Shown piece by piece: positions 10,003-37,282 of a DNA stretch of 64,000 nucleotides. This DNA comes from Vicinamibacteria bacterium. Its GTDB lineage: Bacteria; Acidobacteriota; Vicinamibacteria; Fen-336. The notes under the pieces were generated by a model. It saw only the letters and a program-made list of their open reading frames with translations, searched no databases and had not been told where the DNA came from. Location: positions 24,640-88,639 of the forward strand of contig CAUZDW010000008.1 in assembly GCA_963578825.1 (NCBI GenBank), in the 5' to 3' direction. Both the position numbers and the translations under genes were made by a program. Numbering within the stretch: the stretch's first letter is position 1; each line of letters starts with the position of its first letter.

Positions 10003-10018
10003 ATATACGTGAGTATAT
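10003..10018. promoter_or_regulatory. Palindrome ATATAC-gtga-GTATAT in the vapB promoter; candidate VapB operator and -10 region
   Basis: Perfect 6-bp inverted repeat, AT-rich, about 28 nt upstream of the vapB ATG. On the minus strand it reads ...TATACTCACGTATAT..., which is -10-like. Confidence 0.4.
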
Positions 10019-10111
10019 CCCATCCCATCCGCTCTCGGCCGGCGCGCCGGTTTCGCCTACACTTGGGGCCGCCGGGGGCCCGAGCGGGCCACGCCGGGCA
10101 GGGAGTGTCCG

Positions 10112-13100
10112 ATGCGCGATCTGTGGCGATCCGTCGTGCTGGTTCTCGGGGTGGGGCTCGTGGTCGCCGCGGTCGTCTGCTCCCGCCCCCGACCCGTGGC
10201 CCGCGGACCACTCTCCCCTGCCGAGGCCGCCGTCGTCTCGGCGTTCACCGGGGGCACGATCTCCCGCGAGAGCCCAGTCCGGGTCGTGTTCAACGAACCC
10301 CTCGGCACGGGTCAGCCCCAGAACGCGCCTCTCGAGAGCGAGCCCTTCCGCTTTGACCCACCCCTCGAAGGGGTGACGGTCTGGACGTCTCCCAGCCGCC
10401 TCGAGTTCCGCCCCGGAGACCGTCTCGAGGAGGGCCGAACGTACTCCGCGCGCCTCGACCTCGAAGCCCTCCTCGGCAACGACGCCCCTGCCGATATCGA
10501 TCGCTTCGAGTTCACCTTCTCGGCGATGCGTCAGTCCTTCTCGGTCAACATCGAGGGCCTTCTGGCGGCGGACACGTCCGACATCGCCCAGCAGAAGCTG
10601 AGCGGGCGTCTCGTCACCGCCGATGTCGAGTCCGACGCGAAGGTCGAGCCACTGATCAGCGCCACTCAGGAGGGCAGAGCCCTCGAGATCGCCTGGAACC
10701 ACCACACGGACCGGCGCAGCCACGCTTTCGTAGTGAAAGCGATCGTCCGTGGCGACGAGACATCGAGTGTCGCTGTGCGGTGGGACGGCTCTTCGATCGG
10801 CGTGACCGAAGACGGCAGCCAGGAGATCGAGGTGCCTGCCGTCGACACGTTCACCGTGAGCCTGGCCCGCCCGGTGCAGGGCCGAGAGGAGTACGTGGAG
10901 CTGCGCTTCACGGACCCGCTGCGCCCCAACCAGAGCCTCAAGGGGCTCGTCGTCATCGGTGATCGGAAGGATCTCCGCTTCGTCATCCGCGGAAGCCTCG
11001 TCGAGATCTACGCCACGGGAGGCTTCTCGGGCGACCTGACCGTCCGGGTCGCCGCCGGTGTCAGAAACGCCCTCGGGTACCGCATGAAGGAAGCGCGCGA
11101 GCTGGGCGTTGCGTTCGAGCCGGTCAAGCCGCAGGTGCGCTTCGCCGGCACCGGCGTCATCGTGCCCACCTCGGCCAACCTAACCGTCGCCATCGAGGCC
11201 GTGAACCTCCGCGCTGTCGTCGTCGAGGCCATCCGGGTCCCCGAGACCAACCTCCCCCAGTTCCTGCAGGTGAACGACCTCGACGGCGAGCGGGAGCTGA
11301 ACCGTGTGGGTCGTGTCGTCTGGAGCAGGACCGTCTCCCTCGAGGTGACCGCCGACAAGCAGGATCGCCGGGTGGCGATCGGGCTGGATCTGTCTCCCCT
11401 CGTGGCGGACGGACCCGGCGGACTCTATCGGCTCACGCTCTCCTTCCGGCGCCCGCACATCCTGTGGTCGTGCCCGGGCGACGCCGCACTCGACGAGGAG
11501 CTGACGACCGCCAGCGAGCTGGCCACCGGCGAAGAGGAGGCCAGCTACTGGGACGCCTGGCTGCAGAACGAGGGCGACGATTGGCGGTCACGATACGAAG
11601 GCCGCCGCGACCCCTGCAACCCTGGCTACTACCAACACTTCTATGACCACGACATCCGCGCCTCGCGAAACGTCCTCGTGTCCGACATCGGTCTCATCGC
11701 CAAGGCGGGCGAGGACGGCACGGTGCTGCTGGTGGCCACGGACCTGCGTTCAGCGGCGCCCCTCCAGGGCGCTGCCGTCACGCTCACCGACTCTCAGCAC
11801 GGCACTCTCGCCACCGGGCACACCGGGGGCGACGGCCTCGTCCGCCTCGAGGTGGAGCGGGCTCCCTTCCTCGCCATGGCGCGCCACGGGAGACAGACCG
11901 GCTACCTGCGCCTCGACAACGGGAGCGCCCTCTCCATGGCGCATTTCGACGTCGCGGGGTCCCGGTCTCCCAAGGGTCTCAAGGGCTTTCTCTACGGCGA
12001 GCGGGGCGTCTGGCGGCCGGGCGACACGCTGCACCTCACGTTCATCCTCCAGGACCCCTCGGGACGGCTCGCCTCGGCCGAGCATCCTGTTCGCTTCGAG
12101 CTTCTCAACCCGCGGGGACAGGTGGTGCGGACGCTGACCCGGGCCGACTGGACCGACGGTTTCTCGGTCTTCGAGATCGCGACACCGCCGGACGCTCCCA
12201 CGGGCGCCTACACCGGGCGGGTCACGGTGGGCGGGGCGGTCTTCGAAAAGGCTCTCAAGATCGAGACGGTCATGCCCAACCGCCTCAAGATCGGCCTCGA
12301 CTTCGGACGGGAGATGCTGGAGTCGAGCGAAAGCCTGTCCGCCGCCCTGACGGCGACGTGGCTTCACGGTGCGACCGCCCGGAACCTGAAGGCCGACGTG
12401 GAGCTGGCGCTGTCCGCAGGGCGGACGCGGTTCGATCGCTGGGCCGAGTTCGTCTTCGACGACCCGACCCGGCGGTACGCGACCGAGCGCCAGACCGTCT
12501 TCGACGGCGCCCTCGACGCCTCCGGTCACGCGCGTGTCGACGCGCGGGTCGACCCGGGGGATGCTGCGCCCGGGATGCTCCGGGCCGACTTCACGACCCG
12601 TGTCTTCGAGCCCGGCGGGGCGTTCAGTATCGACCGCTTCAGCCTCCCGTTCTCGCCGTACGAGCGCTACATCGGCATCCGGCCGCCCAGGGGCGATCGG
12701 GCGCGGGGCATGCTCCTCACGGATACGACGCACGAGCTCAGCATCGTGGCGGTGGACTCCTCGGGACGCCCGGCGGGAGACGGCACGGTGGAGGTGAAGC
12801 TCTACAAGATCGACTGGCGCTGGTGGTGGGAGAAGGGCGAGCGTGGCCTGGCGGCGTGGGCGGAGGCGACCGCGCACACGCCCCTCGACTCGGGGGTGGT
12901 GACGCTCGAGGACGGAGTCGGGACGTGGCCCTTCGAGATCAAGCACCCCGAGTGGGGCCGCTACCTCATCACGGCTGCCGACCGGAAGGGCGGTCACCGG
13001 ACCGGGCAGGTCGTCTACATCGACTGGCCGGGATGGGCCGGGCGCGGGCGGAAGGAGGCCCAGGGGGCCACGGTCTTGACCTTCGCCGCCGAGAAGGAGG

Positions 13101-15673: not shown

Positions 15674-15691
15674 GAAGCGGCGCGGCACCAG

Positions 15692-18169
15692 GTGAAGACG
15701 GTGAGGTTCAAGTGGCCACGATGGCGACCCGGCGTCGGCGCGAGGCTCGCCGGGGCCTCGCTCCTCGGCCTGTTCGCCTTCTGGGCGCTGGTGCCGGTGG
15801 TCCCTTTCGACGACCCGCTCTCCACGGTGATCCTCGACCGCGAGGGCCAGCTCCTCGGCGCAACGATCGCCGCGGATGAGCAGTGGCGTTTCGGAGTGGC
15901 GGCTGCCGCGGCAGTGCCGGAGAAGTTCGTGGCCGCCATCACCTGCTTCGAGGACCGCCGTTTCTTCCGACACCCCGGCGTCGACCCCCTGGCGCTGGCC
16001 CGCGCTCTCGGCCAGAACATCCGTCACGGCCGCGTGGTGAGCGGAGGCTCGACACTCACCATGCAGGTCGTGCGCCTGGCCCGCAAAGACCGGCCACGGA
16101 CATACACCGAGAAGGCCGTCGAGGCGGCGCTGGCTCTGCGGCTTTCGATGTCGCTTTCGAAGAAGGAGGTCCTCGCCCTCTACGCCGCATACGCCCCGTT
16201 CGGCGGAAACACCGTGGGCCTCGACGCTGCGGCGTGGCGCTACTTCGGCCGTTCGGCGGCGCGGCTCTCCTGGGGAGAGATCGCGACGCTGGCCGTGCTC
16301 CCGAACGCGCCGTCCCTGATCCACCCGGGGCGAAACCGGAGCCGGCTCCTGCTCAAGCGCAACCGGCTGCTCGACGCGCTGCGGGAGCGCGGCGCCCTCG
16401 ACGCCATGAGCGCCACGCTGGCCAAGGACGAGCCCCTGCCCCCGGCGCCCAGGCCGGTGCCCCGCGTCGCCCCCCATCTCCTCGAGCGCGTGCGAGCCGA
16501 GCGCCGAGCGGGATCCTGGCGAACCGGAGAGCCGAGCCCCTGGGTGTGGACCACTCTCTCCCACGACGTGCAGGTCCGGGCGAGCGTCGTCCTCGAGCGA
16601 CACCACCGCCGGCTCTCGGCACGCGGCGTCCACAACGCGGCGGCGCTCGTGGCCGAGGTCGACACGGGTCGGGTTCTCGCCTACGTCGGCAACCTCTCGC
16701 ACTTCGACCTGCCCGACCGGGGACACTGGGTCGACGTCGTCCCAGCGCCCCGGAGCACCGGAAGCATCCTGAAGCCGCTGCTCTATGCGGCGATGCTGGA
16801 CGCCGGTGAGGTGCTGCCCGGACAGCTCGTCCCCGACGTCCCCACACGCCTCGGGTCCTTCCACCCGGAGAACTTCGATCGCACCTACTCGGGGGCCGTT
16901 CCCGCCCAGCGGGCCCTCGCCCGCTCGCTCAACGTCCCGGCGGTGCGCCTGCTGAGGGCCTTCGGCACCGACCGCTTCACGGTGCTGCTCCGCCGGCTCG
17001 GGCTCACGACGCTCGAGAGATCGGGCGCACACTACGGCCTCTCGTTGATCCTGGGAGGGGCGGAGGGAACCCTCTTCGACGTCACCGGCGCCTATGCCGG
17101 GCTGGGGCGGCTGGTGAGACGCACCGAGCTCGGGGAGTCCCCGGAGGGCGCGTTCCATCCCCTGACCTATCTGGACGAGCCGTCTCCGGGGACTCGGAGC
17201 AGGAATGGCGACGCCCCGATCGGCCCGGGCGCCGTCTGGCTCACCCTCGAGGCCATGCTGGAGGTGGAGCGGCCCGGGGACGATTTCGCCTGGCGCGCGT
17301 TCTCGTCGTCCCGAAAGATCGCCTGGAAGACCGGAACCAGCTACGGCTTCCGGGACGCCTGGGCGGTGGGCGTCACGCCCCGTCACGTGGTGGGCGTGTG
17401 GGCGGGCAACGCGGACGGCGAAGGACGGCCCGGTCTCACCGGATACTCCGCCGCCGCCCCCATACTCTTCGATCTCTTCGACCTCCTCCCGGGGCGCGGC
17501 TGGTTCGAAGAGCCGGGTCGAGACCTGGCCGAAGTCGAAGTCTGTGCCGACAGCGGCATGCGCCGGGGTCGACACTGTCCGGCGGGCCGGCCGCAGCTCG
17601 TGACGATCCGGGGACTGGAGACGCCGCCCTGCGCCTACTGTCGGCTCGCCCACCTGGACCGGGGAGGCGACTGGCAGGTGCACGGAGACTGCGAGCGGGT
17701 GAGGGACATCGAGAGCGTGCCCCGGTTCGTCCTCCCGCCGGCGATGGAGACCTACTATCGCCTTCGGCACGCCGACTATCGGCCCCTGCCGCCGCTGCGT
17801 CCGGATTGCCGCTCGTCAGTGGGTCCGCGAGCGGCCGCCGCTCTCGACTGCGTCTCCCCGCGAGAGGGCGCGACGCTGTACGTTCCCGTCGAGATGGACG
17901 GCTCGCTTGGGCGGGTCGTCTTCGAAGCCGCTCACCGCGACCCGGCGACCACTGTCTTCTGGCACCTCGACGGCGAGTACCAGGGCCGGACCCGCGACAT
18001 TCACCAGATGGCCCTCGCCCCCCCGCCCGGGAGCCACGTCCTGACGCTCGTCGACGAGAGCGGCGAGTCCGTCACGCGCCGTTTCCGAGCGCTGCGTCGC
18101 GTCACAGCTTCAGGAGCCGCGGTGGGGGCGCCGCAGGCCGGGCGTCGCCGCCTCGCTCAGCGGGAGTAG
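15692..18169 (+). CDS. pbpC: Penicillin-binding protein 1C (transglycosylase/transpeptidase)
   Basis: GT51 motifs EDRRFFRHPGVD and GGSTLTMQVVR; transpeptidase STGSILKP, SLN and KTGTSYG; C-terminal PBP1C-specific domain. It starts 18 nt after the A2M stop, the classic A2M-pbpC pairing. Confidence 0.85.
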   Translation: MKTVRFKWPRWRPGVGARLAGASLLGLFAFWALVPVVPFDDPLSTVILDREGQLLGATIAADEQWRFGVAAAAAVPEKFVAAITCFEDRRFFRHPGVDPLALARALGQNIRHGRVVSGGSTLTMQVVRLARKDRPRTYTEKAVEAALALRLSMSLSKKEVLALYAAYAPFGGNTVGLDAAAWRYFGRSAARLSWGEIATLAVLPNAPSLIHPGRNRSRLLLKRNRLLDALRERGALDAMSATLAKDEPLPPAPRPVPRVAPHLLERVRAERRAGSWRTGEPSPWVWTTLSHDVQVRASVVLERHHRRLSARGVHNAAALVAEVDTGRVLAYVGNLSHFDLPDRGHWVDVVPAPRSTGSILKPLLYAAMLDAGEVLPGQLVPDVPTRLGSFHPENFDRTYSGAVPAQRALARSLNVPAVRLLRAFGTDRFTVLLRRLGLTTLERSGAHYGLSLILGGAEGTLFDVTGAYAGLGRLVRRTELGESPEGAFHPLTYLDEPSPGTRSRNGDAPIGPGAVWLTLEAMLEVERPGDDFAWRAFSSSRKIAWKTGTSYGFRDAWAVGVTPRHVVGVWAGNADGEGRPGLTGYSAAAPILFDLFDLLPGRGWFEEPGRDLAEVEVCADSGMRRGRHCPAGRPQLVTIRGLETPPCAYCRLAHLDRGGDWQVHGDCERVRDIESVPRFVLPPAMETYYRLRHADYRPLPPLRPDCRSSVGPRAAAALDCVSPREGATLYVPVEMDGSLGRVVFEAAHRDPATTVFWHLDGEYQGRTRDIHQMALAPPPGSHVLTLVDESGESVTRRFRALRRVTASGAAVGAPQAGRRRLAQRE

Positions 18170-23690: not shown

Positions 23691-25211
23691 CTACCAGAAG
23701 TAGAGATACAAGCCGATCGTCAGGGCGACGATCACGGCCCCAAAGAGCTTTGCCCTCGGGCTCGCCTTGAGGTCGACCTCGCCGGCGTCCGGAATCTCCC
23801 TCGGTTCCCCTGGGCTCACGTGCGTGTAGAGGAGCATCGCCGCCGACGTCGTGAGGAAGGCGAGGGCCGCCACGTTCAGGTACGGACCGTCGACGACCCA
23901 GATGAAGACGCCGTAGAGGGGCACCGAGACGAGCAGCCCCATCACGGCCGCTCCGGCGGGGACCCTCTTGATGAACATCCCCAGAATGAAGACCGCGAGG
24001 ATGCCGGGCCAGATGAAGTTCCACGCCATCTGCATGTAGTCGTAGATGGGTCCCATTCGCCGCAGCTCGGGGGCAAGAAGGCACGCCAGGACCACGAACG
24101 CAGCGGTGCTCATCCGCCCCATGGCGACGAGGGCCTTTAGCGAAGGCTTCGATTTCGCCCAGTGGCGCTTGTAGAGATCGATCGTCAGGATCGTGGAGGC
24201 GGAGTTCAGCATCGAGTCGAGCGAGCTCATGATCGCCCCGAACAGCGCCGCGAACATGACGCCTCGGAGCCCGGACGGGAGCAGCCTCTTCATCAGAAAG
24301 GGATAGGCCTGATCGGCCTCGGGGACCTCGGAGCCGTAGAGCTAGAAGGCAATGATCCCGGGAAAGACGACAAGGAAGGGAATGACGAGCTTCAAGGCAG
24401 CGGCGAAGAGAATCCCCGGCTGCCCTTCCTCCAGGCTCTTGGCGGCGAGGGCGCGCTAGGTGATGAACTGATTCAAGCCCCAGTAGCAGATGTTCGGGAC
24501 CCAGATTCCCAGCAGAAAGATCGTCCACGGCATCGTGGAGTGGTCCGCCGGCAGGACCATGTGGAGCTTGTCCTGATTCACCTCCAGGAAGACGCCGAGG
24601 CCGCCCACTTCCCGAAGGCCGAGAACCAGCACGACCGCGCCCCCCAGCATCAGCGTGATCCCCTGGACGAGGTCGGACCACACGACAGCCTTGAGGCCGC
24701 CGTAGACCGTGTAGGCGCCCGCCCGCACTCCGATGCCCCAGATGCCGTAGTAGAGATTGACGCCGAAGATGCTGTTGAGCGCGAGACCGCCGGTGTAGAG
24801 GACGCCGGCCATGGCCGCGACCACGTACATGATCATCAGGTAGAAGGCCATGATGGCCCGGGCGGTCGCGTTGTAGCGGTACTCCAGGTACTCGGGGAGG
24901 GTGTAGATCCCGGCGCGCAGGAAGCGTGGGAGCAGCACCAGGGCGACGAAGACGAGAGCGATGGCCGCGATCCACTCGAAGCTGGCGATGGCGAGGCCCA
25001 GTTCGAAGCCCTTGCCTCCCATCCCGATGAAGTGCTCCGTCGAGATGTTGGACGCGACCAGCGACAGGCCGATGAGCCACCAGGTCAGGCTGCGGCCGGC
25101 GAGGAAGTAGTCCTCGGAGGTGTCTTCCTTGCGCGAGGCATACAGCGAGACCGCTATGACAAAGACGATGAATCCGACGAAGGTGCCGATGTCGACGCCA
25201 GAGAGTTCCAT
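23691..25211 (-). pseudogene. Sodium:solute symporter (SSF) interrupted by two in-frame TAG codons
   Basis: A single reading frame (start ATG = plus 25209-25211) gives MELSGVDIGTFVGFIVFVIAVSLYASRKEDTSEDYFLAGRSL…GLNQFIT*RALAAKSLEEGQPGILFAAALKLVIPFLVVFPGIIAF*LYGSE…, with TAGs at plus 24456-24458 and 24342-24344. The first falls where SSF proteins have the Q of the conserved Q-R-x-LAAKS motif. The track splits it into ORFs 24456..25370 and 23691..24293. Confidence 0.7.
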
Positions 25212-25353
25212 GCTCGATTTGATCGGACTCGCCTTTGGGAGTAGCGCTCCCGAGCGGCCTTTGGCTGATCCCGCGTGAGGGCAGATTACATCACGGATTT
25301 CGGAGAGGACGGTGGAGAATAAACTGCTCGACGCGGCGTGGTAGATTTCGTCG

Positions 25354-26436
25354 ATGGAAGGCGGGCTCAAGCTGGGGATCGTCGGTGCGGGACGGATCGG
25401 CGTCTTTCACGCGCAGCACGTCCAGGAGATCGCCAGCGACCGAGGCGACTGCACGCTGAGCGCTGTGATCGACGCCCACGAAGACACCGCCGAGCGCGTG
25501 GCGGCGCAGCTGCAGGAACGCCAGGGTCAGCCCGTCCGCGCGTTCCGCCGCATCGAGGAGGCGATCGACGCCGGGGGCCTCGACGCCGCGGTCGTGGCGT
25601 CTCGCACGGAGGACCATGAGGCCCACACGCGCACCCTCGTCGACGCCGGGTGTCGTGTGCTCCTCGAGAAGCCCCTCGCCAGCTCCTTCGAGAGTGCTGC
25701 GGCGCTGGCGGAGCACCTCGCCGCACTGCCGGGCGGAGATCGGGCGGTCATGCAGGCGTTTCAGCGCCGATTCGACGAGCCGCTCCGGCGGGCCAAGGCG
25801 CTTGTCGACGACGGCGCCGTCGGCCAACCGTTCAAGATTGTGTCGGTGCTCGAGGATCCCGACCCGCCGCCGGAGGGATATCAGAGCCCCGGCCTGCTCC
25901 CCGACATGTCCGTCCACAACGTCGACGAGGTCGTGTGGCTCCTGGGCCAGCGCCCGGATCGCGCGACCGCAATGGCCAGTCGGCTCTACAACACCGCCAT
26001 CGCCTCGGTGAAAGAGGATTTCGACGACGCGCTCATGACCATGTGGTTCCCTGGTGGTGCGGCCGCCCAGGTGCAGGTGAGCCGCAATCACGTCGCCGGC
26101 TACCGCAACGAGACCTGGGTCTACGGCGATCGCGGGGTCGTGCACGTCGGCGGGTTTCAGGAGGATCCGCTGCGGGTCGACGTCGAGGCCCTCGCCCGTG
26201 GCCGAGTCATCGCCCGGGAGACCTTCAGGATGAGATCGTACGACGCCCCCAGCGTGCCGGTGTTCGTCGAACGCTTCGGTCCCGCATACCGCGCCGAGAT
26301 GGTGCACTTCATCAACTGCGTCACCCGGGGCGAGCCGTTCGCGGTCACACACGAAGACGGTCTGGAAGCGCTGCGCATCGTGGAGGCCGCGGCCCGGGCG
26401 GTTCAGACCCGCGACGGCGCCCCGCAGGGCGTGTGA
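25354..26436 (+). CDS. Gfo/Idh/MocA family NAD(P)-dependent oxidoreductase (inositol/sugar dehydrogenase-like)
   Basis: N-terminal Rossmann LKLGIVGAGRIGVFHAQH, EKP motif VLLEKPLA, and a C-terminal alpha/beta domain. Divergent from the symporter gene. Confidence 0.8.
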   Translation: MEGGLKLGIVGAGRIGVFHAQHVQEIASDRGDCTLSAVIDAHEDTAERVAAQLQERQGQPVRAFRRIEEAIDAGGLDAAVVASRTEDHEAHTRTLVDAGCRVLLEKPLASSFESAAALAEHLAALPGGDRAVMQAFQRRFDEPLRRAKALVDDGAVGQPFKIVSVLEDPDPPPEGYQSPGLLPDMSVHNVDEVVWLLGQRPDRATAMASRLYNTAIASVKEDFDDALMTMWFPGGAAAQVQVSRNHVAGYRNETWVYGDRGVVHVGGFQEDPLRVDVEALARGRVIARETFRMRSYDAPSVPVFVERFGPAYRAEMVHFINCVTRGEPFAVTHEDGLEALRIVEAAARAVQTRDGAPQGV

Positions 26437-28914: not shown

Positions 28915-29802
28915 ATGGAACGAAAGAAGGCCAGCGATTTCGACCCGGAGCTTCTCGATCTCTTCGACAGGTACGTCCACGGGGGGATCAGCCGCCGCAC
29001 GTTCCTGGATCGTGCGGGTCGCTTCGCCGTTGGGGGCGTCACAGCGGCGGCCCTCGTGGAGACCCTGAGCCCGAACTATGCCGCGGGCGAGCAGATCGCC
29101 TCGGACGACGAGCGGCTCGAGCCGAAGTCCATCGAGTACGAGTCGCCGAAGGGGTACGGCACGGTCAAGGGCTACCTGGTGCGGCCCGCGGGATCCAGCG
29201 GGAAACTCCCCGGTGTGGTCGTCATCCACGAGAACCGGGGACTCAACCCCCATATCCGAGACGTGGCACGCCGCACCGCCCTGGCCGGCTACCTGGCCCT
29301 CGCCCCCGACGGGCTCACGTCCCTCGGAGGCTACCCCGGCACCGACGACGAGGGCCGCTCGATGCAGCGAACGCTGGACCGGGACAAGCTCTTCGAGGAC
29401 TTCGTCGCCGCGGTGGAGTTCCTCCAGTCCTACCCGGGCTGCACGGGACGGGTGGGCTGCGTGGGTTTCTGCTACGGCGGCAGCGTCTCGAACGGGCTGG
29501 CCGTGCGGGTCCCCGACCTGGCGGCCGTGGTGCCGTTCTATGGGGGGCAGGCTCCCTCTGCGGACGTGGCGAACATCAAGGCCCCGCTGCTCCTTCACTA
29601 CGCGGGCAACGACAAGAGGGTCAACGCCGACTGGCCGGCCTACGAGGAGGCGCTCAAGGCCAACGGTGTCCGCTACACGGCCCACGTCTACGAAGACACG
29701 AGCCACGGCTTTCACAACGACACGACACCGCGATACGACGAGGCCGCCGCAAAGCTGGCCTGGCAGCGAACGCTCGAGTTCTTCGAAATGCATCTGAGCT
29801 GA
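28915..29802 (+). CDS. Dienelactone hydrolase family protein with Tat signal
   Basis: [24 protein letters not shown] is a twin-arginine signal. [21 protein letters not shown]…GFCYGG (nucleophile elbow)…HGFHND. Confidence 0.8.
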
Positions 29803-29829
29803 CGACGACAGCCCGACGAGATGCTGACC

Positions 29830-29853
29830 GGGGACGTGACGCCCCTTCTCTCC
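29830..29853. terminator. Weak GC hairpin plus T-rich tail between convergent genes
   Basis: GGGG-acgtgacg-CCCC followed by TTCTCTCC. The stem is only 4 bp, so low confidence. Confidence 0.25.
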
Positions 29854-29885
29854 TACCGTGCGGGGGATGTCCACTTCCCGGCTCG

Positions 29886-31685
29886 TCAGTGGCCCACTGC
29901 TCGGCCCTCGTTCTGCTCATCGAGCCAGGCGACCAGTGGCTCGAAGTATTCGACCAGGGCGGAGGCGTCCACTTCGCGCTGACCAGTGAGCGCCTCGAGG
30001 GCATCGGGCCAGGGCTGGCTCATGCCCATGGCCATCATGCGCCGTAGCCGATCGCCCGCCGCCTCGCTGCCGTAGATCGAGCAGCGGTAGAGCGGGCCTT
30101 CGTACCCGGCCTCGCGGCACAGCGCTCGATGAAACTGGAACTGGAGGATGCGGGCGAGGAAGTAACGCGTGTACGGCGTGTAGGCCGGCACGTGGTACTT
30201 GGCGCCAGGGTCGAAGTCGTCTTCGGTGCGAGGGGCGGGGGCCTCGATGCCCTGGTATTCCTCCCGCAGCTCCCACCATGCCTCGTTGTAGTGCTCGGGT
30301 GACAGCTCGCCCGAGAAGACCTTCCAGCGCCACTTGTCGATCACCAGGCCAAACGGCAGGAAGGACACCTTGTCGAGGGCGGTGCGGAGCAACAGGGCCA
30401 CGTCGGCGCTCGTGTCGGGCTCGCGGTCGAGCAGCCCGATCTCGACCAGGTAGCCCGGGGTGACCGAGAGGGCCACGGCGTCGCCGAGCGCCTCGTGGAA
30501 ACCGTCGTTGGCGCTCCCGCGGAAGAGAAACGGCTGCTGACGGTAGGCCCGCTGGTAGTAGTTGTGTCCCAGCTCGTGGTGCACGGTGACGAAATCCTCG
30601 GCGTCGACTTTGATGCACATCTTGATCCGGAGGTCCTGATTGTTGTCCACGTTCCAGGCACTCGCGTGACAGACCACCTCGCGATCCCTCGGCTTCACGA
30701 AGAGGGAGCGCTCCCAGAACGTGTCGGGGAGCGGCTCGAAGCCCAGGGACGAGAAGAAGCGCTCGCCGATTCTGACCAGCTCCAGCTCGTCGACACCCTT
30801 TCGACGGAGGAGCTCGGTGAGGTCGTAGCCTCGGCTTCCAGTGCCCAGCGCGACCAAGGGGTAGATGTTTCCCCACTCCTGAGCCCACATGTTCCCCAGG
30901 AGATGGGCGGGGATGGGCCCGGACTCCGGCACCTTGTCTGGCCCGTACCGGGCACGGAGCCCGGCACGCACGTGAGCGTGGAGGGCCTCGTAGAGGGGTT
31001 TCACCTGGCCCCACAGCCGGTCGAGCTCGGCCTCGAACTCGTCCGGGGCCATGTCGTAGTTCGACCGCCAAAGGACCCCGAGATCGTCGAAGCCCAGCTC
31101 GCGGGCGCCGGTGTTCCCGATCTCGACCGTGCGCTGGTACCTGGCCTTCATCGGAGGCGCGATGGTGCGCCACCCCTGCCACGCGTCGAGCAGCTCGTCG
31201 TAGTCACGACTCTCCGCCATGACCTTCTCGAGGTCGTTGAGCGGCCGGCCCTCGTGTTTTCCCTTGCCGTAGACACTCTCGAGGTCCACGGCGAGGCGGG
31301 CGAGCTCGGCCCGGTCGCCGGCGTCGGCTGGTCCGGGGAGGGTCTGGGAGAGCTTCAGGAGCTTCATCTGACGGGCGAGGTCGGGTGGAAGCTCGAGGCC
31401 ATCGTAGACCGCGGCCTCGGCAGCGAGCTCCACGCTGGTCCCCATGACGGCCTCTCGGGCCTCGGCCGCCACGGTGTCCGTGTCCCGGGTGATGAAGTTG
31501 GCCTGCACCCAGGCCGCGCGGGCCGATCGATTGTTGTCCTCCAGCAGGCGAGCGTTGGCGTCTTCCAGGAACGCCCGGGCATCGTCCACTGCGGGGACCG
31601 TCGTGCAGGCCGAAACGCCCAGGAGCGAAAGTGTCGTCGCGGCGGCCACTGCCGCCCATCGGCGCAGAGGGTGACTCTGTCTCAT
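29886..31685 (-). CDS. M2 family metallopeptidase (angiotensin-converting-enzyme-like peptidyl-dipeptidase), lipoprotein
   Basis: Signal with lipobox LLGVSAC. The zinc site HHELGHNYY plus downstream FHEALGD is the HEXXH...E arrangement of ACE/M2. SD GAGGAG before the ATG. Confidence 0.85.
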   Translation of the reverse strand: MRQSHPLRRWAAVAAATTLSLLGVSACTTVPAVDDARAFLEDANARLLEDNNRSARAAWVQANFITRDTDTVAAEAREAVMGTSVELAAEAAVYDGLELPPDLARQMKLLKLSQTLPGPADAGDRAELARLAVDLESVYGKGKHEGRPLNDLEKVMAESRDYDELLDAWQGWRTIAPPMKARYQRTVEIGNTGARELGFDDLGVLWRSNYDMAPDEFEAELDRLWGQVKPLYEALHAHVRAGLRARYGPDKVPESGPIPAHLLGNMWAQEWGNIYPLVALGTGSRGYDLTELLRRKGVDELELVRIGERFFSSLGFEPLPDTFWERSLFVKPRDREVVCHASAWNVDNNQDLRIKMCIKVDAEDFVTVHHELGHNYYQRAYRQQPFLFRGSANDGFHEALGDAVALSVTPGYLVEIGLLDREPDTSADVALLLRTALDKVSFLPFGLVIDKWRWKVFSGELSPEHYNEAWWELREEYQGIEAPAPRTEDDFDPGAKYHVPAYTPYTRYFLARILQFQFHRALCREAGYEGPLYRCSIYGSEAAGDRLRRMMAMGMSQPWPDALEALTGQREVDASALVEYFEPLVAWLDEQNEGRAVGH

Positions 31686-31710
31686 GGCTTTCTCCTCGTC
31701 TGTCTCGTTC

Positions 31711-33453
31711 TCACGTCTGGTCCAGGGACTCCACCCGGCCCGCGAGAGCGGCCAGGCCGTCGTCGAGGTCGGCAAGGGCGGACTCCGCCGCTCGCAGTCG
31801 ATCCCCCTCGGTTCGCACGAAGCGAGAATAGGGAGCGATGGCCTCGCGCACCTTCTGCAAGCTGCGGTCGCGCTCGCTCTCGAAGCTCGCGGTCAGGGAC
31901 GAGAGGAGCTTCTCGTGGAGGGAGGCCACCCTCGCCGCGAGCTCGGCCCGCGCCTTGCGACGGCGGGCAGGCAGGACGAAGAGCCCGAGCACCGAAAGGG
32001 CTCCGGCGGCCACCAGCCCGGTCACGTCGACAGCGGTGCTGGTGGCCAGGGTCGTCACCAGGGCGCCGAGTCCCAGGGCCGAGACTTGGAGGAGCGCCGT
32101 CTGGGCGACCGAGTCGCGCACGGTCTGAGCGAGGCGTCTGGCCTCGGCGGGGGCATCGTATCCATCGACTGCGCGCTGTGCCTCGGTGCGCACCGCCCCC
32201 AGAAGGCGCTGCCGGTCGTACCCGAAGCGATCCTCGACCCGACCCACCATCTTGTCGGCGTGGGCGACTTGCCGACCACCGAGGTGCTCCATGACGTCCT
32301 GCCACTGCCGGAGCTCCGCCTCCACCATCCAGTCGACGACCGCCTCCACCCGGGTCTCGACCTCGCGAGGCAGCTCGGCGACGACAGTCGTCTCGAAGTC
32401 CCGGCGGAGGCGCTCCTTGCTCAGCAGCTCGTGGATGCGCATCAGGCGAAGGCGCTCGTCGAAGAAAGCGTTCCCGCGCCGCTCGAAGTCGAGGAGGACC
32501 TTCTCGACGTCGGAGAGCCGCAGCCGGAAGTCCCGCTCCAAGTCGGCGCGACGGGCGGCGAGATCGGCCTCCACCGTTTCCAGCGTGTCGAGATCCCCCT
32601 CGAGAACCCTCAACCGGCCGTCGACGACCGCAGCCACCTCGCCGTGGACACGGCGGCCCACGCCCAGCGGGTTCTGGAGCTTCAAGCGGAACCGCTCGCC
32701 CTCGTCCAGGGTGGCGGTGACTCGGGCTTCGAAGGACTCGAGGCCGCTCGCGTCGAGCGCCACCTCGTCGCCGTCCAGACGGGCCTGAAGCGCCCGGCGG
32801 GCGGAGAGCGCGAACACCTCCGGCGCGAACCCGAGGGTCCGTTGCGCCTGGTCTCTCACATAGGTCACGACCCGTGAGACATCGTCCGGCGACTCGAGGA
32901 GATCGGCCTTGTTCACGACGACGATCACCTTCTTGCCCCAGGCCCGGATCGCCTCGAGAAAGGCCCGCTCGCTCTCGGCGAAAGGCCGATCGGAGGACGT
33001 GACGAACAGCACGAGGTCGGCGCGGGGGACGAACTCTCGGGTCAGGGCCTCGTGTTCTCTCAGCACCGCGTTCGTGCCCGGGGTGTCGACGATCACGAGA
33101 TCGCGGAGGATCTCGCTGGGGGCCGTGAGGCTCTCGAGCCCGGCCGCGGTCACCTCACGCCCCATCTCCTCACCGTGGCGAAGGAGACCAATGCGGGCCG
33201 TGGTCGGGGTGATTCCCTCCTCCAGCACTTTCTGGCCGAGGAGCGCGTTGATGAACGCGCTCTTCCCCGCGTTGAACTCCCCGACGACGACGAGCAGGAA
33301 GGGCTCCTCGAGCTGCTCGATCGAGTCGGCGAGGGCCTTCCGCTGCTCCTCGGGGGCCTCGAGTCGGACGAGCCAGTCCCGAAGCTCGCCGAGGAGGCGG
33401 CGCTCGTCGCCCAGGAGGGCGCGGCGCGTCTCGTCGAGGCTGGGCGTGATCAT
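31711..33453 (-). CDS. Bacterial dynamin-like GTPase (BDLP/DynA/LeoA family)
   Basis: G1 GEFNAGKSAFINALLG, G3 DTPG, G4 NKAD. Long coiled-coil stalk, then a C-terminal double hydrophobic paddle (LLQVSALGLGALVTTLA…LVAAGALSVLGLFVL). It ends 25 nt before the ACE-like gene start. Confidence 0.8.
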   Translation of the reverse strand: MITPSLDETRRALLGDERRLLGELRDWLVRLEAPEEQRKALADSIEQLEEPFLLVVVGEFNAGKSAFINALLGQKVLEEGITPTTARIGLLRHGEEMGREVTAAGLESLTAPSEILRDLVIVDTPGTNAVLREHEALTREFVPRADLVLFVTSSDRPFAESERAFLEAIRAWGKKVIVVVNKADLLESPDDVSRVVTYVRDQAQRTLGFAPEVFALSARRALQARLDGDEVALDASGLESFEARVTATLDEGERFRLKLQNPLGVGRRVHGEVAAVVDGRLRVLEGDLDTLETVEADLAARRADLERDFRLRLSDVEKVLLDFERRGNAFFDERLRLMRIHELLSKERLRRDFETTVVAELPREVETRVEAVVDWMVEAELRQWQDVMEHLGGRQVAHADKMVGRVEDRFGYDRQRLLGAVRTEAQRAVDGYDAPAEARRLAQTVRDSVAQTALLQVSALGLGALVTTLATSTAVDVTGLVAAGALSVLGLFVLPARRRKARAELAARVASLHEKLLSSLTASFESERDRSLQKVREAIAPYSRFVRTEGDRLRAAESALADLDDGLAALAGRVESLDQT

Positions 33454-33472
33454 GGTCGATGGTCGATGGTCG
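33452..33472. repeat. Tandem heptamer (ATGGTCG)x3 at the dynamin gene start codon
   Basis: Plus catggtcgatggtcgatggtcgg. On the minus strand this is CGACCAT x3, with the last copy supplying the ATG of the dynamin gene. Confidence 0.6.
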
Positions 33473-33560
33473 GCTGGACGCTCCCGGGGGCGCGCCAGGG
33501 GCGCGGGGAAGTTCCAAGGCGAGCTTAGTACGGAATGCGCGGCAAGGGGAATGGACCACC

Positions 33561-34640
33561 CTAGAACGTGTAGCCGAGGGCGAGAGTGACCGCGAAGTCT
33601 TCCTTGGAGACGCCCTCGGTCGGGGGCTCGGAGTCGTAGTTATAGAAACCCTTGATCACGAGATGGAAGTCGCTGAAGAGCTCCCGGTCCAGGCGCACGT
33701 TCAGGTCCACACGGTAGCGGCCCCAGTCGGTCAGCCCGAAGGTGACGATCGAGCCGATCTCGACGTCCGTCTTCGGGAAGTCGTAGGCGAAGTTGGCCCA
33801 GTCCAGGGCGATCAGGGCCTCCAGGTTCGTAGCCCTCTCGCCGTTCACTGGCACCTCGCGGTTGACGTAGAGGCCGGCGGCACCCAGGATCTCGTTGCCC
33901 TGGCTGCGCACCAAGTAGCGTCCCCAGGCGCCTGTGATGCCGGCGCGGAGGTCATAGCCAAGCGCAGTGTTCTGATCCGCGGAGACGCGCCCCATGGCAA
34001 AGTGACGACGCTCGAAGGTGCGGACATATGTCGCCGCAAGGGAGTTTCGTGTGGTGTCCTCGATGTTCTCCGGCCGCTGGAGGAACGAGCTGCCCTTGAG
34101 CTCGGCGGAAAAGGTCGGTCGAGTGAACTTGACGGAGAAGTCGCCGTTGAACTCGACCAGATCGCTGGCTTTCGTATAACCGAAACCGACGTCGACCGAG
34201 CCCGAGAGCCTTTTCCAGAAGCTGCTCTTGATGGACTGGACGCGAGCGATGGTCTCGAGGGGCACGGTCTCGATCCCGGTGGCCGTGGCGACCTGAAGCC
34301 CTTCGTCCGGGATGGTCTCCAAGGGGCCGAAGTAGAGACCGCCATAGAGGTCCTCGATCTCGAAGAGGCCCGCGGCCGTCAGCGACTCGATCTTGTCCCA
34401 TTCGATGTCGACGGTGCCCATGTCGTCGGTCTTGACCCGAATCTTCCCGCGCCTGAGGCTCACGATCTCGCAGGTGATCTGATCCCCGTTCTTGAGAACG
34501 ATGACGTCCGTCTTGGGGTCGGCGCGAGCCGGGACCGAGAAGCCGAGGACGACGATCGCGAGCCACACCGCACCGATGACGAAGAAACGGTACCGGACAC
34601 TGGAGGCCGGCGCGGAAACCACGGTGGGACGTGCGATCAT
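33561..34640 (-). CDS. Outer-membrane beta-barrel protein, DUF481-like
   Basis: Signal peptide; N-terminal VLKNGDQITCEIVS...GKIRVKTDDMGTVDIEW module; alternating amphipathic strands; C-terminal aromatic ...LALGYTF typical of OMPs. Confidence 0.55.
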   Translation of the reverse strand: MIARPTVVSAPASSVRYRFFVIGAVWLAIVVLGFSVPARADPKTDVIVLKNGDQITCEIVSLRRGKIRVKTDDMGTVDIEWDKIESLTAAGLFEIEDLYGGLYFGPLETIPDEGLQVATATGIETVPLETIARVQSIKSSFWKRLSGSVDVGFGYTKASDLVEFNGDFSVKFTRPTFSAELKGSSFLQRPENIEDTTRNSLAATYVRTFERRHFAMGRVSADQNTALGYDLRAGITGAWGRYLVRSQGNEILGAAGLYVNREVPVNGERATNLEALIALDWANFAYDFPKTDVEIGSIVTFGLTDWGRYRVDLNVRLDRELFSDFHLVIKGFYNYDSEPPTEGVSKEDFAVTLALGYTF

Positions 34641-34702
34641 GGTGGCAGGTACAAGGCGAGTATGCCCGGCCCGGGGGCGGTGGTAGTCTAGGCCTCCTCT
34701 CG

Positions 34703-35764
34703 ATGCTCTTCGACATCGGCCTCTTCCTGGGCGGTCTGGTGGTCCTCGTGACCGGCGGGCACGCCCTCGTGAACGGGTCCTCCGCGCTCGCTCGGCGGCT
34801 TCGGCTGTCCCCGCTCGTGATCGGTCTGACGGTGGTGGCCTGGGGCACGAGCGCGCCGGAGCTCGCGGTCAGCCTTGGTGCCGCTCTCGACGGCCGGGGA
34901 GGCATGGCTCTCGGCAACGTCGTCGGCAGCAACATCATCAACATCCTCGGCGTGCTCGGCGCCTCGGCGCTCCTCACACCGCTGGTGGTCTCGAGGCAGC
35001 TGGTGTGGCGCGACGTGCCGATCCTCGTCGTTCTGTCCGGAGCGGTCCTCGTGCTGGGCTACGAGGGGCATCTCGGGCGCGGGGAGGGTGGGCTGCTGTT
35101 CCTCGCCGGCCTCGGGTACACCGTCCACACCATCCGGGCGAGTCGGCGTGAGAGCGTCGCGGTGTCCGACGAGCGCCCGCGTGCAGAGGTTCGGCTTCCT
35201 CGTGCCAGCCTCCTGGTCGCGGTGGGGATGCTCCTGCTCGTGGTCGGGGCGCGCTGGATAGTGAGCGCGGCCACGACCTTCGCCCAGGCCCTGGGCGTGA
35301 GCGATCTCGTCGTGGGCCTGACGGTGGTCGCGGTCGGCACGTCGCTGCCCGAGGTGACTGCTTCGATCGTCGCCGCATGGCGGGGGGAAAGAGATATGGC
35401 GGTGGGAAACGTCATCGGCAGCAACATCTTCAATATCGTGAACGTGCTCGGCCTCACCGCACTCCTGGCGCCGCAGGGCGTGCCGGTGCCCGAGCCGGCG
35501 CTTCGATTCGACCTCCCGGTGATGATCGTGGTGGCGGCGGCCTGCCTCCCGATTTTCTACACCGGGCATCGGATCAACCGGTGGGAGGGGGCGCTGTTTC
35601 TCGGTTACTACGCTGTCTATCTCCTTTTCGTCGTGCTGCAGGCGGAGCGGCACGACGCGCTGCCGGCTTTCAGCCGGGCCATGCTCTTCTTCGTGATCCC
35701 GCTCACGGTGGCGACGGTGGGCGTCGTGGCCTGGCGCGAGCTTCGGCGCCCAGCCCGCACCTGA
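34703..35764 (+). CDS. Ca2+/Na+ antiporter (CaCA/YrbG family)
   Basis: Two alpha-repeats, GTSAPELAVS and GTSLPEVTAS; 10 TM helices. Confidence 0.8.
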   Translation: MLFDIGLFLGGLVVLVTGGHALVNGSSALARRLRLSPLVIGLTVVAWGTSAPELAVSLGAALDGRGGMALGNVVGSNIINILGVLGASALLTPLVVSRQLVWRDVPILVVLSGAVLVLGYEGHLGRGEGGLLFLAGLGYTVHTIRASRRESVAVSDERPRAEVRLPRASLLVAVGMLLLVVGARWIVSAATTFAQALGVSDLVVGLTVVAVGTSLPEVTASIVAAWRGERDMAVGNVIGSNIFNIVNVLGLTALLAPQGVPVPEPALRFDLPVMIVVAAACLPIFYTGHRINRWEGALFLGYYAVYLLFVVLQAERHDALPAFSRAMLFFVIPLTVATVGVVAWRELRRPART

Positions 35765-36052
35765 GCGGCGAGGCTGGGGCCTCCGAAGAGCACCAGGTTG
35801 CCGAGGAGGATACCGACGAGAAGCTCGCCGAGAACCACGGGCAGGCACCGGCGAGGAAGAAGGCGAGAGCAAGGAGGATCTGGGCCTGCTCCTCCTTCGC
35901 CCCTGCAGACGCAAGAACAGAGGGCAGAATCGCCATGCGAGCCCGCAGGTCTAGCGCCCGCGGCTTCGCCCACGGGATGTGGTATAGGTGTGGTGTCCGC
36001 CAGCCACGAGGGTCCCGTGGGGAAGGTCCGGGCCGCGGCGGTCAGGAGCCTC

Positions 36053-37282
36053 ATGAGCGATTTCCACCAGTTCGGTCCCGTCACTGCCATCCCGTTGCTT
36101 GCGGCCCGCGACCCGGAGGAGATGGAGCAGCGCCTCGAGGAGCTGACCGAGCGATTCCCCGTGTCGCTGGTCATTCCCATGATCCCCAGCGAGATGGATC
36201 GGCCCGCCCTTGGTCGAATCCTGGACGAGCTGTACCAGGTGAAGTGGATCGACACGCTCGTGGTCTCCCTGAATCGAGCCACCCTGGAGGACTACCGGCG
36301 CGCCGTCGAGTTCTTCGATCGCTACCAGGGACGCAAGATGGTGCTGTGGAGCGAGTCGCCGGCGGTCTCGGCCTTCGTGTCGGACATGGCGGCCGCCGGG
36401 CTCTACACGGGCGAGACAGGGAAGGGGCGCGCGTGCTGGCTGGCCATCGGGCTCATCCTCGCCGAGGATCGCACCTCCTACATCGCTTTCCAGGATGCAG
36501 ACGTCATCAACTACACACGCTGGATGCTGGGTCGCCTGGTGCTCCCCGCCATCGAGCCGACCGTCGATTTCGATTTCGTGAAGGCCTACTACGGTCGCGT
36601 CTCCGATCGACTCCACGGTCGGGTGACCAGGCTCCTGCTGACGCCCCTTCTTGGAGCGTTCACGAGGCTGATCGGCTCGGACCCCTACATCCGCTATCTT
36701 TCCTCGTTTCGCTACGCCCTCTCCGGGGAGTTCACCATCAAGCGCGATCTGGCCGAGCAGCTCCGGCTGCCCTGCGATTGGGGTCTCGAGATCGTGACGC
36801 TCTTCGAAGCGCTCCGGCACCGCGCTCCCGGGCGGCTCTGCCAGGTCGAGATCACCGAGCGCTACGACCACAAGCACCAGGATCTCTCCGGGCAGGACCC
36901 GACCCAGGGGCTCAACCGCATGGCGCGCGACGTCATCAAGCACCTGCTGAGAACGCTGGCCGCGGCTGGCGTGACCCTCTCGCCCGGGCTTCTCATGAGC
37001 CTTCTCGCGGCCTACCAGCGCCAGGCGGAGGATGCGGTCAACGACTCGTACGCCGTAGCGGTGGTCAACCACCTGAAATACGACCGGCACGCCGAGGAGC
37101 AGAGCGTGCACGTGTTCGCCGAGGCACTGAGGGCCTCGATCGACGAGTTCCTGGCCGATCCGCTGGGCCCTCCCCTCGTGCCGAACTGGTCGCGGGTGTG
37201 GGCGGGCGTTCCCGACGCGAGCGCGCGGCTGCTCGCCGCCGTCGAGAGGGGAGCGGAGCCCCCGAGCGGGGTTCGACGGTGA
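36053..37282 (+). CDS. Glycosyltransferase of the mannosyl/glucosyl-3-phosphoglycerate synthase type (MpgS/MggA-like)
   Basis: SD AGGAG before the ATG. 409 aa with IAFQDADVINY (DXD-like). It is immediately followed by, and start/stop-overlapped with, a YedP/MpgP-type phosphatase. The family assignment is an inference. Confidence 0.6.
   Translation: MSDFHQFGPVTAIPLLAARDPEEMEQRLEELTERFPVSLVIPMIPSEMDRPALGRILDELYQVKWIDTLVVSLNRATLEDYRRAVEFFDRYQGRKMVLWSESPAVSAFVSDMAAAGLYTGETGKGRACWLAIGLILAEDRTSYIAFQDADVINYTRWMLGRLVLPAIEPTVDFDFVKAYYGRVSDRLHGRVTRLLLTPLLGAFTRLIGSDPYIRYLSSFRYALSGEFTIKRDLAEQLRLPCDWGLEIVTLFEALRHRAPGRLCQVEITERYDHKHQDLSGQDPTQGLNRMARDVIKHLLRTLAAAGVTLSPGLLMSLLAAYQRQAEDAVNDSYAVAVVNHLKYDRHAEEQSVHVFAEALRASIDEFLADPLGPPLVPNWSRVWAGVPDASARLLAAVERGAEPPSGVRR

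Follow-up and report, generated by a model that had tools for sequence, protein, structure and literature searches.

The window, by which we mean the whole 64-kb stretch of DNA that was analysed, comes from a Vicinamibacteria bacterium whose genome has a GC content of 68%. ORF calling in the window yielded three consecutive genes on the minus strand, encoding a DUF481-family barrel, a dynamin-like GTPase and an M2 (ACE-like) peptidase, and other genes of the window encode transporters, hydrolases, glycosyltransferases, PBP1C and alpha-2-macroglobulin. A preliminary description of the region had given the three genes these identities and this shared direction, and the ORFs and Pfam matches agree with it throughout. 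In the order in which the genes would be transcribed, the features are:

33561 to 34640, minus strand: DUF481-family outer-membrane beta-barrel protein, 359 aa (Pfam PF04338)
33454 to 33560, minus strand: DUF481-dynamin spacer, 107 nt, which probably holds the promoter for the dynamin (and M2) transcript (aligned with relatives)
33521 to 33532, minus strand: conserved 12-mer CGTACTAAGCTC (alignment upstream of the dynamin gene)
33452 to 33472, minus strand: (CGACCAT)x3 perfect tandem repeat overlapping the dynamin ATG (TRF: period 7, 3.0 copies, 100% match)
31711 to 33453, minus strand: solitary bacterial dynamin-like protein (BDLP/mitofusin class), 580 aa (Pfam, PDB profiles, AF2/Foldseek, G motifs)
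32794 to 33306, minus strand: GTPase domain of the BDLP, approximately aa 50-220 (invariant alignment columns; Pfam Dynamin_N, MMR_HSR1 and GTP_EFTU stretches)
31963 to 32100, minus strand: two neighbouring hydrophobic segments of the BDLP, aa 452-472 and 475-497 (Kyte-Doolittle window scan)
31686 to 31710, minus strand: dynamin-M2 junction, 25 nt, with the Shine-Dalgarno sequence GAGGAG at 31692-31697; too short for a terminator
29886 to 31685, minus strand: predicted M2 (ACE-like) zinc dipeptidyl-carboxypeptidase, 599 aa from its ATG (Pfam PF01401, human ACE alignment)

The product of the dynamin gene scores 89.5 bits against the Pfam dynamin-like GTPase model Dynamin_N, which has a cut-off of 27, and its G1 (GEFNAGKS, aa 58-65), G3 (DTPG, aa 123-126) and G4 (NKxD, aa 181-184) motifs show no variation in an alignment of orthologues (n=43 sequences). 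The AF2 model (pLDDT 81.4, pTM 0.71) contains long helices at aa 251-334, 361-392, 409-452 and 481-575 and, per this model and Foldseek, neck/trunk helical bundles are built from sequence on either side of the putative membrane element. The best Foldseek matches were BDLP, IniA, DLP1/2, LeoA and MFN1, at a probability of 1.00, and PDB profile searches retrieved Nostoc BDLP (2J68, 5.5e-20), Campylobacter DLP1 (5.4e-19) and mitofusin-1 (1.5e-08). We read aa 452-497, from their hydrophobicity, as a putative membrane-inserted hairpin or "paddle", and the sequence of this stretch is highly conserved. Structure prediction, which had been suggested earlier as a check on the paddle, returned a BDLP-type fold, but with a pLDDT below 50 at aa 454-485, within the putative paddle. 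The protein would be anchored in the inner membrane through this C-proximal hairpin, and by analogy with its solved relatives its presumed role is to tether, fuse or repair membranes in a GTP-dependent manner.

Those relatives establish the structural class of the protein. With Nostoc punctiforme BDLP (PDB 2J68/2J69) and Campylobacter jejuni DLP1/DLP2 (5OWV), the top matches by PDB profile and by Foldseek (TM 0.57 to DLP2), it shares a GTPase domain, a helical neck/trunk and a putative hydrophobic membrane-binding tip. However, identity to them is only 12-19%, its length is 580 aa versus about 600-730, and its putative membrane element, two segments of about 20 residues each, appears nearer to a mitofusin-type transmembrane hairpin than to the short Nostoc paddle, although model confidence there is low. 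The order of parts, from GTPase through helical bundle and hydrophobic hairpin to a long C-terminal helix, matches that of MFN1 and of mitofusin/Fzo1 proteins in general, but the protein is bacterial and much shorter, and the likeness is limited to fold and superfamily. Finally, the PADLOC models for LeoBC (7e-24, nearly full length) and LeoA (2e-20), which belong to the "Dynamins" defence system and ETEC LeoABC, both match this one single gene, and Foldseek also retrieved the LeoA structure 4AUR; the NCBIfam LeoA/HP0731 model, on the other hand, reaches only 19.9 bits against a cut-off of 325.

Paired BDLP operons are familiar from the DynA fusion, DynA/DynB, DLP1/DLP2, IniA/IniC and LeoABC, and the preliminary description had taken pairing with a second dynamin to be the normal state of bacterial dynamins. 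This does not hold for the present family. No second dynamin gene or adjoining dynamin domain was found in the window or in any of 111 related loci so that, unlike the DLP1/DLP2 operon pair, the BDLP here is a solitary gene, and it is solitary in every locus examined. Its orthologues span Acidobacteriota and Chloroflexota, with neighbours that keep changing: when the ORFs within 5 kb of the dynamin were clustered, no neighbour family was found in more than 16 of the 111 loci, and a universal partner gene was accordingly rejected. The BDLP is thus a member of a conserved, solitary family that extends across both phyla.

The M2 peptidase covers model positions 5-580 of 581 in PF01401 (716 bits, cut-off 23) and aligns over its full length with each of the two catalytic domains of human ACE (E 3.9e-290), with the motifs kept. 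The ORF list runs to a TTG at 31775; we chose the ATG at 31685 because the N-termini of orthologues agree with it and a GAGGAG lies 6 nt upstream. An intact HEXXH...E site and a lipobox, both attributed to this protein earlier, can be located at HELGH (aa 370-374, 30564-30578) with E398 of HEALGD as the third zinc ligand (30492-30494), and at VSA↓C (MRQSHPLRRWAAVAAATTLSLLGVSA↓C), which ends a signal peptide, fits the pattern [LVI][ASTVI][GAS]C and would place the lipidated cysteine at Cys27. In this strain the protein is therefore a predicted lipoprotein, probably Sec-exported and lipidated at Cys27, and judging from its family it most likely serves to scavenge peptides, cleaving C-terminal dipeptides off oligopeptides at the cell surface or in the periplasm like the bacterial ACE homologues that have been characterised. 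XcACE of Xanthomonas is a characterised dipeptidyl carboxypeptidase. Like XcACE (mentioned in PMC3235092) and other bacterial ACE homologues, the present protein has a single M2 domain with HEXXH...E intact and a predicted secreted or periplasmic location; unlike them it is a predicted lipoprotein. The lipobox is the same in locus L081 and a lipobox is also seen in L083, but the orthologues of L112 and L113 have no Cys at this position. M2 homologues number more than 8000 from many phyla, and one of them, 65% identical (L115), has no dynamin nearby.

The DUF481 protein matches PF04338 at 53.7 bits (cut-off 21.1) over aa 159-359. It resembles E. coli YdiY-type barrels in this match of its C-terminal 200 aa and in its N-terminal signal peptide (...VPARA↓DPK), and differs from them in an additional N-terminal domain, about 110 aa long, without a Pfam match.

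The dynamin stop codon (TGA, 31711-31713) had been reported to lie 25 nt before the M2 start, which was credited with a GAGGAG Shine-Dalgarno of its own, and the junction at 31686-31710 confirms both points. L081 and L083 have a homologous junction, and since its 25-nt length and conserved Shine-Dalgarno sequence are common to the window clade and L083, the two genes probably are co-transcribed, as was also proposed earlier, and have been for at least a moderately long time. The two most distant loci with an M2 gene have dynamin-M2 spacers of 72 nt (L112) and 297 nt (L113) bearing the -10-like boxes TAAGAT and TAGAAT, respectively, and the L113 spacer additionally forms strong hairpins (z = -4.4). 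Upstream of the dynamin, the 12-mer CGTACTAAGCTC occurs once in the window and precedes the dynamin gene in every relative at least 81% identical, with a single mismatch in L083; we infer that it contains a -10-like TAAGCT box. The same 12-mer lies about 50 nt upstream of FtsH in L084, an FtsH-dynamin locus. No consensus sigma-70 promoter or intrinsic terminator was found on either strand of 29500-35000 by a scan that is weak, if informative at all, at this GC content, and Rfam yielded no match at E up to 1 in the same interval. The preliminary description had also pointed out that a perfect (CGACCAT)x3 repeat supplies the dynamin start codon, and the repeat is indeed there. It is, however, one of 27 TRF rows of similar score in the window and is specific to this strain, being kept in neither L081 (98%) nor L108 (97%). 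Given this lack of conservation in such close relatives, we take it to be no more than chance or slippage and reject it as a regulatory or phase-variation element.

Whether the dynamin and the M2 peptidase occur together elsewhere was assessed in two sets of loci. The distant set comprises 80 genome loci with dynamins 44-58% identical to that of the window, from Holophagales, Thermoanaerobaculia, Vicinamibacterales, Bryobacterales, Anaerolineae and Caldilineaceae, and neither an M2 gene nor a DUF481 gene (nor a second dynamin) lies within 10 kb of the dynamin in any of them. The close clade, defined by a dynamin at least 70% identical, is a small sample of 12 loci. M2 follows the dynamin in five of these, namely the window, L081 (98%), L083 (81%), L112 (74%) and L113 (75%), and is missing in the other seven, which show six distinct arrangements: L082 and L088 (84%), L116 and L117/L118 (81%), L084 (74%) and L085 (71%). 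L086 (69%) and L087 (62%), just beyond the clade, are without M2 too. The adjacency is therefore limited to one shallow clade in which the dynamin is at least 73% identical. The preliminary description would have been refuted by a lack of conservation in every related genome, which is not what is seen, as the adjacency recurs in four related loci (L081, L083, L112 and L113). A metagenome scan for close relatives retrieved mostly contigs of 2-6 kb, with little downstream sequence.

A neighbour-joining tree (without support values) places M2-negative loci among M2-positive ones, which suggests one ancestral adjacency followed by approximately three losses, and the congruent identity matrices of M2 and dynamin point to vertical co-inheritance of the two. 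As a neutral control, a divergently transcribed Na/Ca exchanger gene is kept in 9/12 loci of the clade versus 5/12 for M2; because this gene is more widely retained, neutral synteny suffices to account for the adjacency, and dynamin and M2 do not form a conserved cluster beyond background synteny. In L082, L117 and L118 the dynamin has a PBP1C orthologue (79-80% identical) at a distance of 2-4 kb, and in the window this distance is 13.5 kb, which indicates that M2 sits within a variable segment running from the dynamin to an anchor formed by PBP1C and alpha-2-macroglobulin. Nevertheless, five of the lineages sampled, with protein identity as low as about 73%, have kept the adjacency although the genes on the far sides changed, so some selection for proximity is possible.

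We consider it likely, with good confidence, that the three genes are independent and ordinary cell-envelope genes whose adjacency reflects shared ancestry in a family-level Acidobacteriota clade instead of a functional module, and that the dynamin-M2 pair is probably a lineage-specific, incidental bicistron. In this strain the two genes probably share one transcript, with its promoter within the 107-nt spacer, and M2 would be translated from its own GAGGAG site, while the DUF481 barrel would be transcribed separately. Such a bicistron looks like the by-product of a spacer that shrank between two ancestrally adjacent, separately transcribed genes. The preliminary description had left open whether the region was a novel envelope-stress or defence module or a coincidental operon; the module is not supported, and the coincidental operon is what fits best.

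Other readings were weighed against this one. It seems quite unlikely that selection keeps the dynamin and M2 (perhaps also DUF481) together as a genuine functional envelope module. In one such scenario, the dynamin would remodel the inner membrane or produce vesicles when the envelope is under stress, and this activity would be linked to the delivery or release of the peptidase as a lipoprotein. Such a module would explain why the adjacency was kept in five lineages (dynamin 73-98% identical) despite turnover of the outer neighbours, and the tight junction without a terminator, the predicted envelope association of every product and the full-length similarity of the dynamin to LeoA and LeoBC are all consistent with it; in ETEC, LeoA has been implicated in secretion associated with vesicles. 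However, M2 is found at 0/80 distant orthologue loci, the adjacency has broken down on about three or more occasions inside the clade, and M2 is kept less widely than an unrelated divergent gene. Separate promoter-like boxes lie between the genes in L112 and L113, with hairpins in L113, the M2 gene of L081 is frameshifted beside an intact dynamin, and the predicted lipid anchor of M2 is not conserved. In the paper library searched, no paper names both a bacterial dynamin-like protein and a peptidyl-dipeptidase, and there was nothing relevant on the gene neighbourhoods of bacterial dynamin-like proteins in Acidobacteria. A more specific version, in which a solitary BDLP was recruited into a two-gene unit with an exported ACE-like lipoprotein that couples membrane remodelling or vesiculation to deployment of a surface peptidase, perhaps with DUF481 as a third component in the sub-clade at or above 81%, strikes us as very unlikely.

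We regard as improbable a trans-envelope system formed by the DUF481 barrel and the BDLP, with M2 as a passenger, even though the gene directly upstream of the dynamin, in the same direction, is a DUF481 orthologue in 12/12 loci where the dynamin is at least 81% identical. The barrel is missing wherever the dynamin is 75% identical or less (L112, L113, L084-L087 and all 80 genome loci) and diverges far faster than the dynamin (58-86% versus 81-98% identity), and the two genes are separated by the conserved promoter-like box, which in L084 precedes FtsH, the gene that there occupies the DUF481 position. As for defence, the matches to the PADLOC LeoA and LeoBC models would allow the dynamin to be part of an anti-phage "Dynamins" system and the region to be a defence locus, but this we hold to be extremely unlikely. 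That system has a LeoA-type and a LeoBC-type gene together, as a rule in a defence or mobile setting; here there is a single gene among housekeeping and envelope neighbours, with no defence or mobile genes, so that the defence-island context raised in the preliminary description was not seen, and the NCBIfam LeoA/HP0731 score is far below its cut-off. Defence genes are typically patchy in distribution, and a slowly evolving, vertically conserved orthologue across two phyla, at 44-58% identity, is the opposite of that pattern. A defence system was accordingly rejected, despite the LeoA/LeoBC similarity, for lack of both partner genes and defence context.

If the dynamin and M2 were nevertheless a true unit, it would be a new kind of envelope module and would link a bacterial dynamin to an exported peptidase for the first time. 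As found, the pair matters little in itself and serves as a worked example of how a tight junction of two envelope genes, equipped with its own Shine-Dalgarno sequence, can come from lineage-specific synteny and not from function. A by-product of the analysis is a well-conserved family of solitary BDLPs of about 580 aa with a putative mitofusin-like hydrophobic hairpin, present in Acidobacteriota and Chloroflexota with no fixed partner, which counters the common assumption that bacterial dynamins are paired.

The locus consists of three co-directional ORFs on the minus strand, all with strong third-position GC bias, in a window of about 68% GC whose proteins have their named homologues in Acidobacteriota metagenome-assembled genomes.

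Features of the locus (window positions, all minus strand)
33561-34640: DUF481 outer-membrane barrel gene, 359 aa; Pfam 53.7 bits against a cut-off of 21.1
33521-33532: 12-mer CGTACTAAGCTC in the 107-nt DUF481-BDLP spacer
33452-33472: perfect 3 x 7-nt repeat, (CGACCAT)x3, overlapping the BDLP ATG
31711-33453: dynamin-like GTPase (BDLP) gene, 580 aa; Dynamin_N 89.5 bits against a cut-off of 27
31711-31713: BDLP stop codon TGA
31692-31697: GAGGAG, inside the 25-nt BDLP-M2 gap
31685: M2 start ATG
29886-31685: ACE-like M2 peptidase gene, 599 aa; Peptidase_M2 716 bits, model covered almost entirely

The preliminary description of this locus was borne out in every detail (ORFs, Pfam assignments, junction, motifs, lipobox, and repeat), and its gene annotation is right, as judged by Pfam, by the structure-class matches of the BDLP, and by comparison of M2 with human ACE. 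A profile of BDLP orthologues matched the PDB entries of Nostoc BDLP (5.5e-20), Campylobacter DLP1 (5.4e-19), DLP2, and mitofusin-1, and the G1, G3, and G4 motifs are invariant in the orthologue alignment. The structure prediction suggested in the preliminary description, computed with AlphaFold2 from 43 orthologues (pLDDT 81.4, pTM 0.71), supports a dynamin-class fold, with a GTPase domain and, after it, very long helices; in Foldseek the model was closest to BDLP, IniA, DLP1/2 (TM 0.57 to DLP2), LeoA, and mitofusins. Two conserved hydrophobic stretches in the putative paddle region (aa 452-497), modelled at low confidence, likely form a predicted membrane hairpin. The 580-aa protein genuinely belongs to the BDLP/mitofusin class. 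Its coding sequence also holds an imperfect tandem repeat at 32940-32992 (21-nt period, 2.5 copies, 79% match, TRF score 62). The start-codon repeat (CGACCAT)x3 is absent from a 98% identical relative (L081), is degenerate in a 97% one (L108), and scores like other rows among the 27 TRF rows for the window; it appears to be a product of slippage peculiar to this strain, and nothing about it points to a function.

In the M2 protein the zinc-site motifs are intact: HELGH spans aa 370-374, and aa 398 is the Glu of a HEALGD motif further along the chain. Its alignment with human ACE is full-length for each of the two catalytic domains (E 3.9e-290), and by sequence pattern it begins with a signal peptide closing in the lipobox VSA|C (Cys27), a cysteine that the M2 orthologues of L112 and L113 lack. 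Close homologues of the family number more than 8000 and are spread over many phyla; L115, a 65% identical homologue and the only distant one whose context was read, has no dynamin nearby.

Gene order at related loci (BDLP protein identity to that of the window)
L081, 98%: DUF481-BDLP-M2; frameshift splits M2
L083, 81%: DUF481-BDLP-M2
L112, 74%: BDLP-M2, gap 72 nt; without DUF481
L113, 75%: BDLP-M2, gap 297 nt; without DUF481
L082, 84%: DUF481-BDLP, then convergent ApbE gene; without M2
L088, 84%: DUF481-BDLP; no M2 match, contig short
L116, 81%: DUF481-BDLP, then response regulator
L117 and L118, 81%: DUF481-BDLP, then S9/DLH hydrolase
L084, 74%: FtsH-BDLP-Band_7
L085, L086, and L087, 71%, 69%, and 62%: unrelated neighbours

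The conservation check proposed for the BDLP-M2 adjacency had a mixed outcome: the pair recurs in L081, L083, L112, and L113, but it is missing from other close relatives, and tblastn of flanks up to 10 kb found M2 at 0 of 80 distant loci. In a neighbor-joining tree, which carries no support values, M2-negative lineages are nested among M2-positive ones, which is most simply explained if the genes became adjacent once, in an ancestor, and were separated by about three losses since. The identity matrices of M2 and BDLP are congruent, which points to vertical inheritance of the pair. DUF481 lies 5' of BDLP at all 12 loci of at least 81% identity and at none below. In L081, M2 is present as two overlapping ORFs (L081:7769-9597) with a frameshift near aa 245; the gene may have decayed to a pseudogene, or the break may be a long-read assembly error.

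The adjacency is not above background synteny, and three controls agree on this. At the 12 loci of at least 70% identity, an unrelated neighbour, the divergently transcribed upstream Na/Ca exchanger, is kept in nine, versus five for M2. PBP1C orthologues (79-80% identical to the window's) lie 2-4 kb downstream of BDLP in L082, L117, and L118, accompanied in L117 by an alpha-2-macroglobulin gene, whereas the window's own copies are 13.5 kb from BDLP, beyond M2, a dienelactone hydrolase, an amidohydrolase, an oxidoreductase, a symporter, an outer-membrane efflux protein, and sulfatases. M2 thus belongs to a variable stretch of about 13.5 kb bounded by two anchors. At 10013-18169 (+), the window's alpha-2-macroglobulin gene (1886 aa) stands immediately before the PBP1C-type penicillin-binding protein gene, the known A2M/PbpC pairing. 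A sodium:solute symporter (SSF) occupies two ORFs, 23691-24341 and 24456-25406 (-), of which the first matches the C-terminal and the second the N-terminal half of its Pfam model; the split may reflect a frameshift, gene decay to a pseudogene, or faulty assembly. A 494-aa ORF that Pfam does not recognise (35798-37282, +) is 82-89% conserved in relatives, always between the Na/Ca exchanger and a HAD hydrolase/glycosyltransferase pair.

The box CGTACTAAGCTC occurs once in the window, matched no Rfam family, and is conserved 5' of BDLP in every relative of at least 81% identity, at a varying distance from the ATG (sites include L081:5943-5956 and L082:5958-5971). In L084 (4118-4131) it stands about 50 nt 5' of FtsH, which holds the DUF481 position and overlaps the BDLP start. 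Analogous boxes, GATAGACT and GATAAGCT, lie 5' of BDLP in L112, L113, and L087. We infer that CGTACTAAGCTC is a putative -10-like promoter element (TAAGCT) of the BDLP transcript. If it drives BDLP, DUF481 would be a separate transcription unit and BDLP-M2 a bicistron in this strain. The co-transcription originally proposed is plausible. A consensus promoter/terminator scan of 29500-35000, which has little power in this genome, detected none. The third control on synteny concerns the most distant M2-positive loci, L112 and L113, in which spacers separate the two genes and carry AT-rich TAnnnT boxes (TAAGAT and TAGAAT, respectively) resembling those 5' of BDLP genes; the L113 spacer (L113:5704-6000) also has two long perfect hairpins (folding z = -4.4 versus shuffled sequence), which are candidates for a terminator or a REP-like element. 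Given these spacers, the 25-nt junction of the window clade looks like a secondary compaction.

The preliminary description had offered two readings, a novel envelope-stress or defence module or a coincidental operon, and stated that bacterial dynamins normally pair with a second dynamin. PADLOC models for LeoBC (7e-24) and LeoA (2e-20) do match BDLP along its full length, but with the NCBIfam LeoA model it reaches 19.9 bits where the cut-off is 325, none of the genes seen near BDLP is a defence or mobile gene, and no partner dynamin is encoded in the 64-kb window or at any related locus examined. The gene is, moreover, vertically conserved across two phyla. An orthologue-alignment scan with one genome per GTDB species gave the 80 distant loci (BDLP 44-58% identical) from Holophagales, Thermoanaerobaculia, Vicinamibacterales, and Bryobacterales, and, in Chloroflexota, from Anaerolineae and Caldilineaceae; the same tblastn searches of their flanks found neither DUF481 nor a second dynamin (0/80 each), and clustering of flanking ORFs at 111 loci gave neighbour families that recur at 16 loci at most. 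BDLP is therefore conserved and solitary, without a constant partner, and the defence or stress module of LeoA/LeoBC type fails as an explanation. A true BDLP-M2 module is very improbable: the adjacency is a piece of synteny that is confined to one lineage and has been broken repeatedly, and no paper in the library searched joins "bacterial dynamin-like" with "peptidyl-dipeptidase".

The best explanation, with good probability, is that the three envelope genes are independent and that their bicistron is incidental. The locus combines a housekeeping-type BDLP that is solitary, an ACE-like peptidase that is predicted to be exported and lies in a variable segment, and a DUF481 barrel acquired only in the shallowest sub-clade; each gene adds a member to an already known family. 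Some relatives have an FtsH protease gene whose end abuts or overlaps the start of BDLP (median gap 8 nt, 5 loci); in L084 (4169-8889) FtsH-BDLP is followed by a Band_7/SPFH gene, and four other loci fall in the FtsH cluster. This FtsH-BDLP-SPFH arrangement could link the dynamin to membrane quality control more meaningfully than the M2 adjacency.
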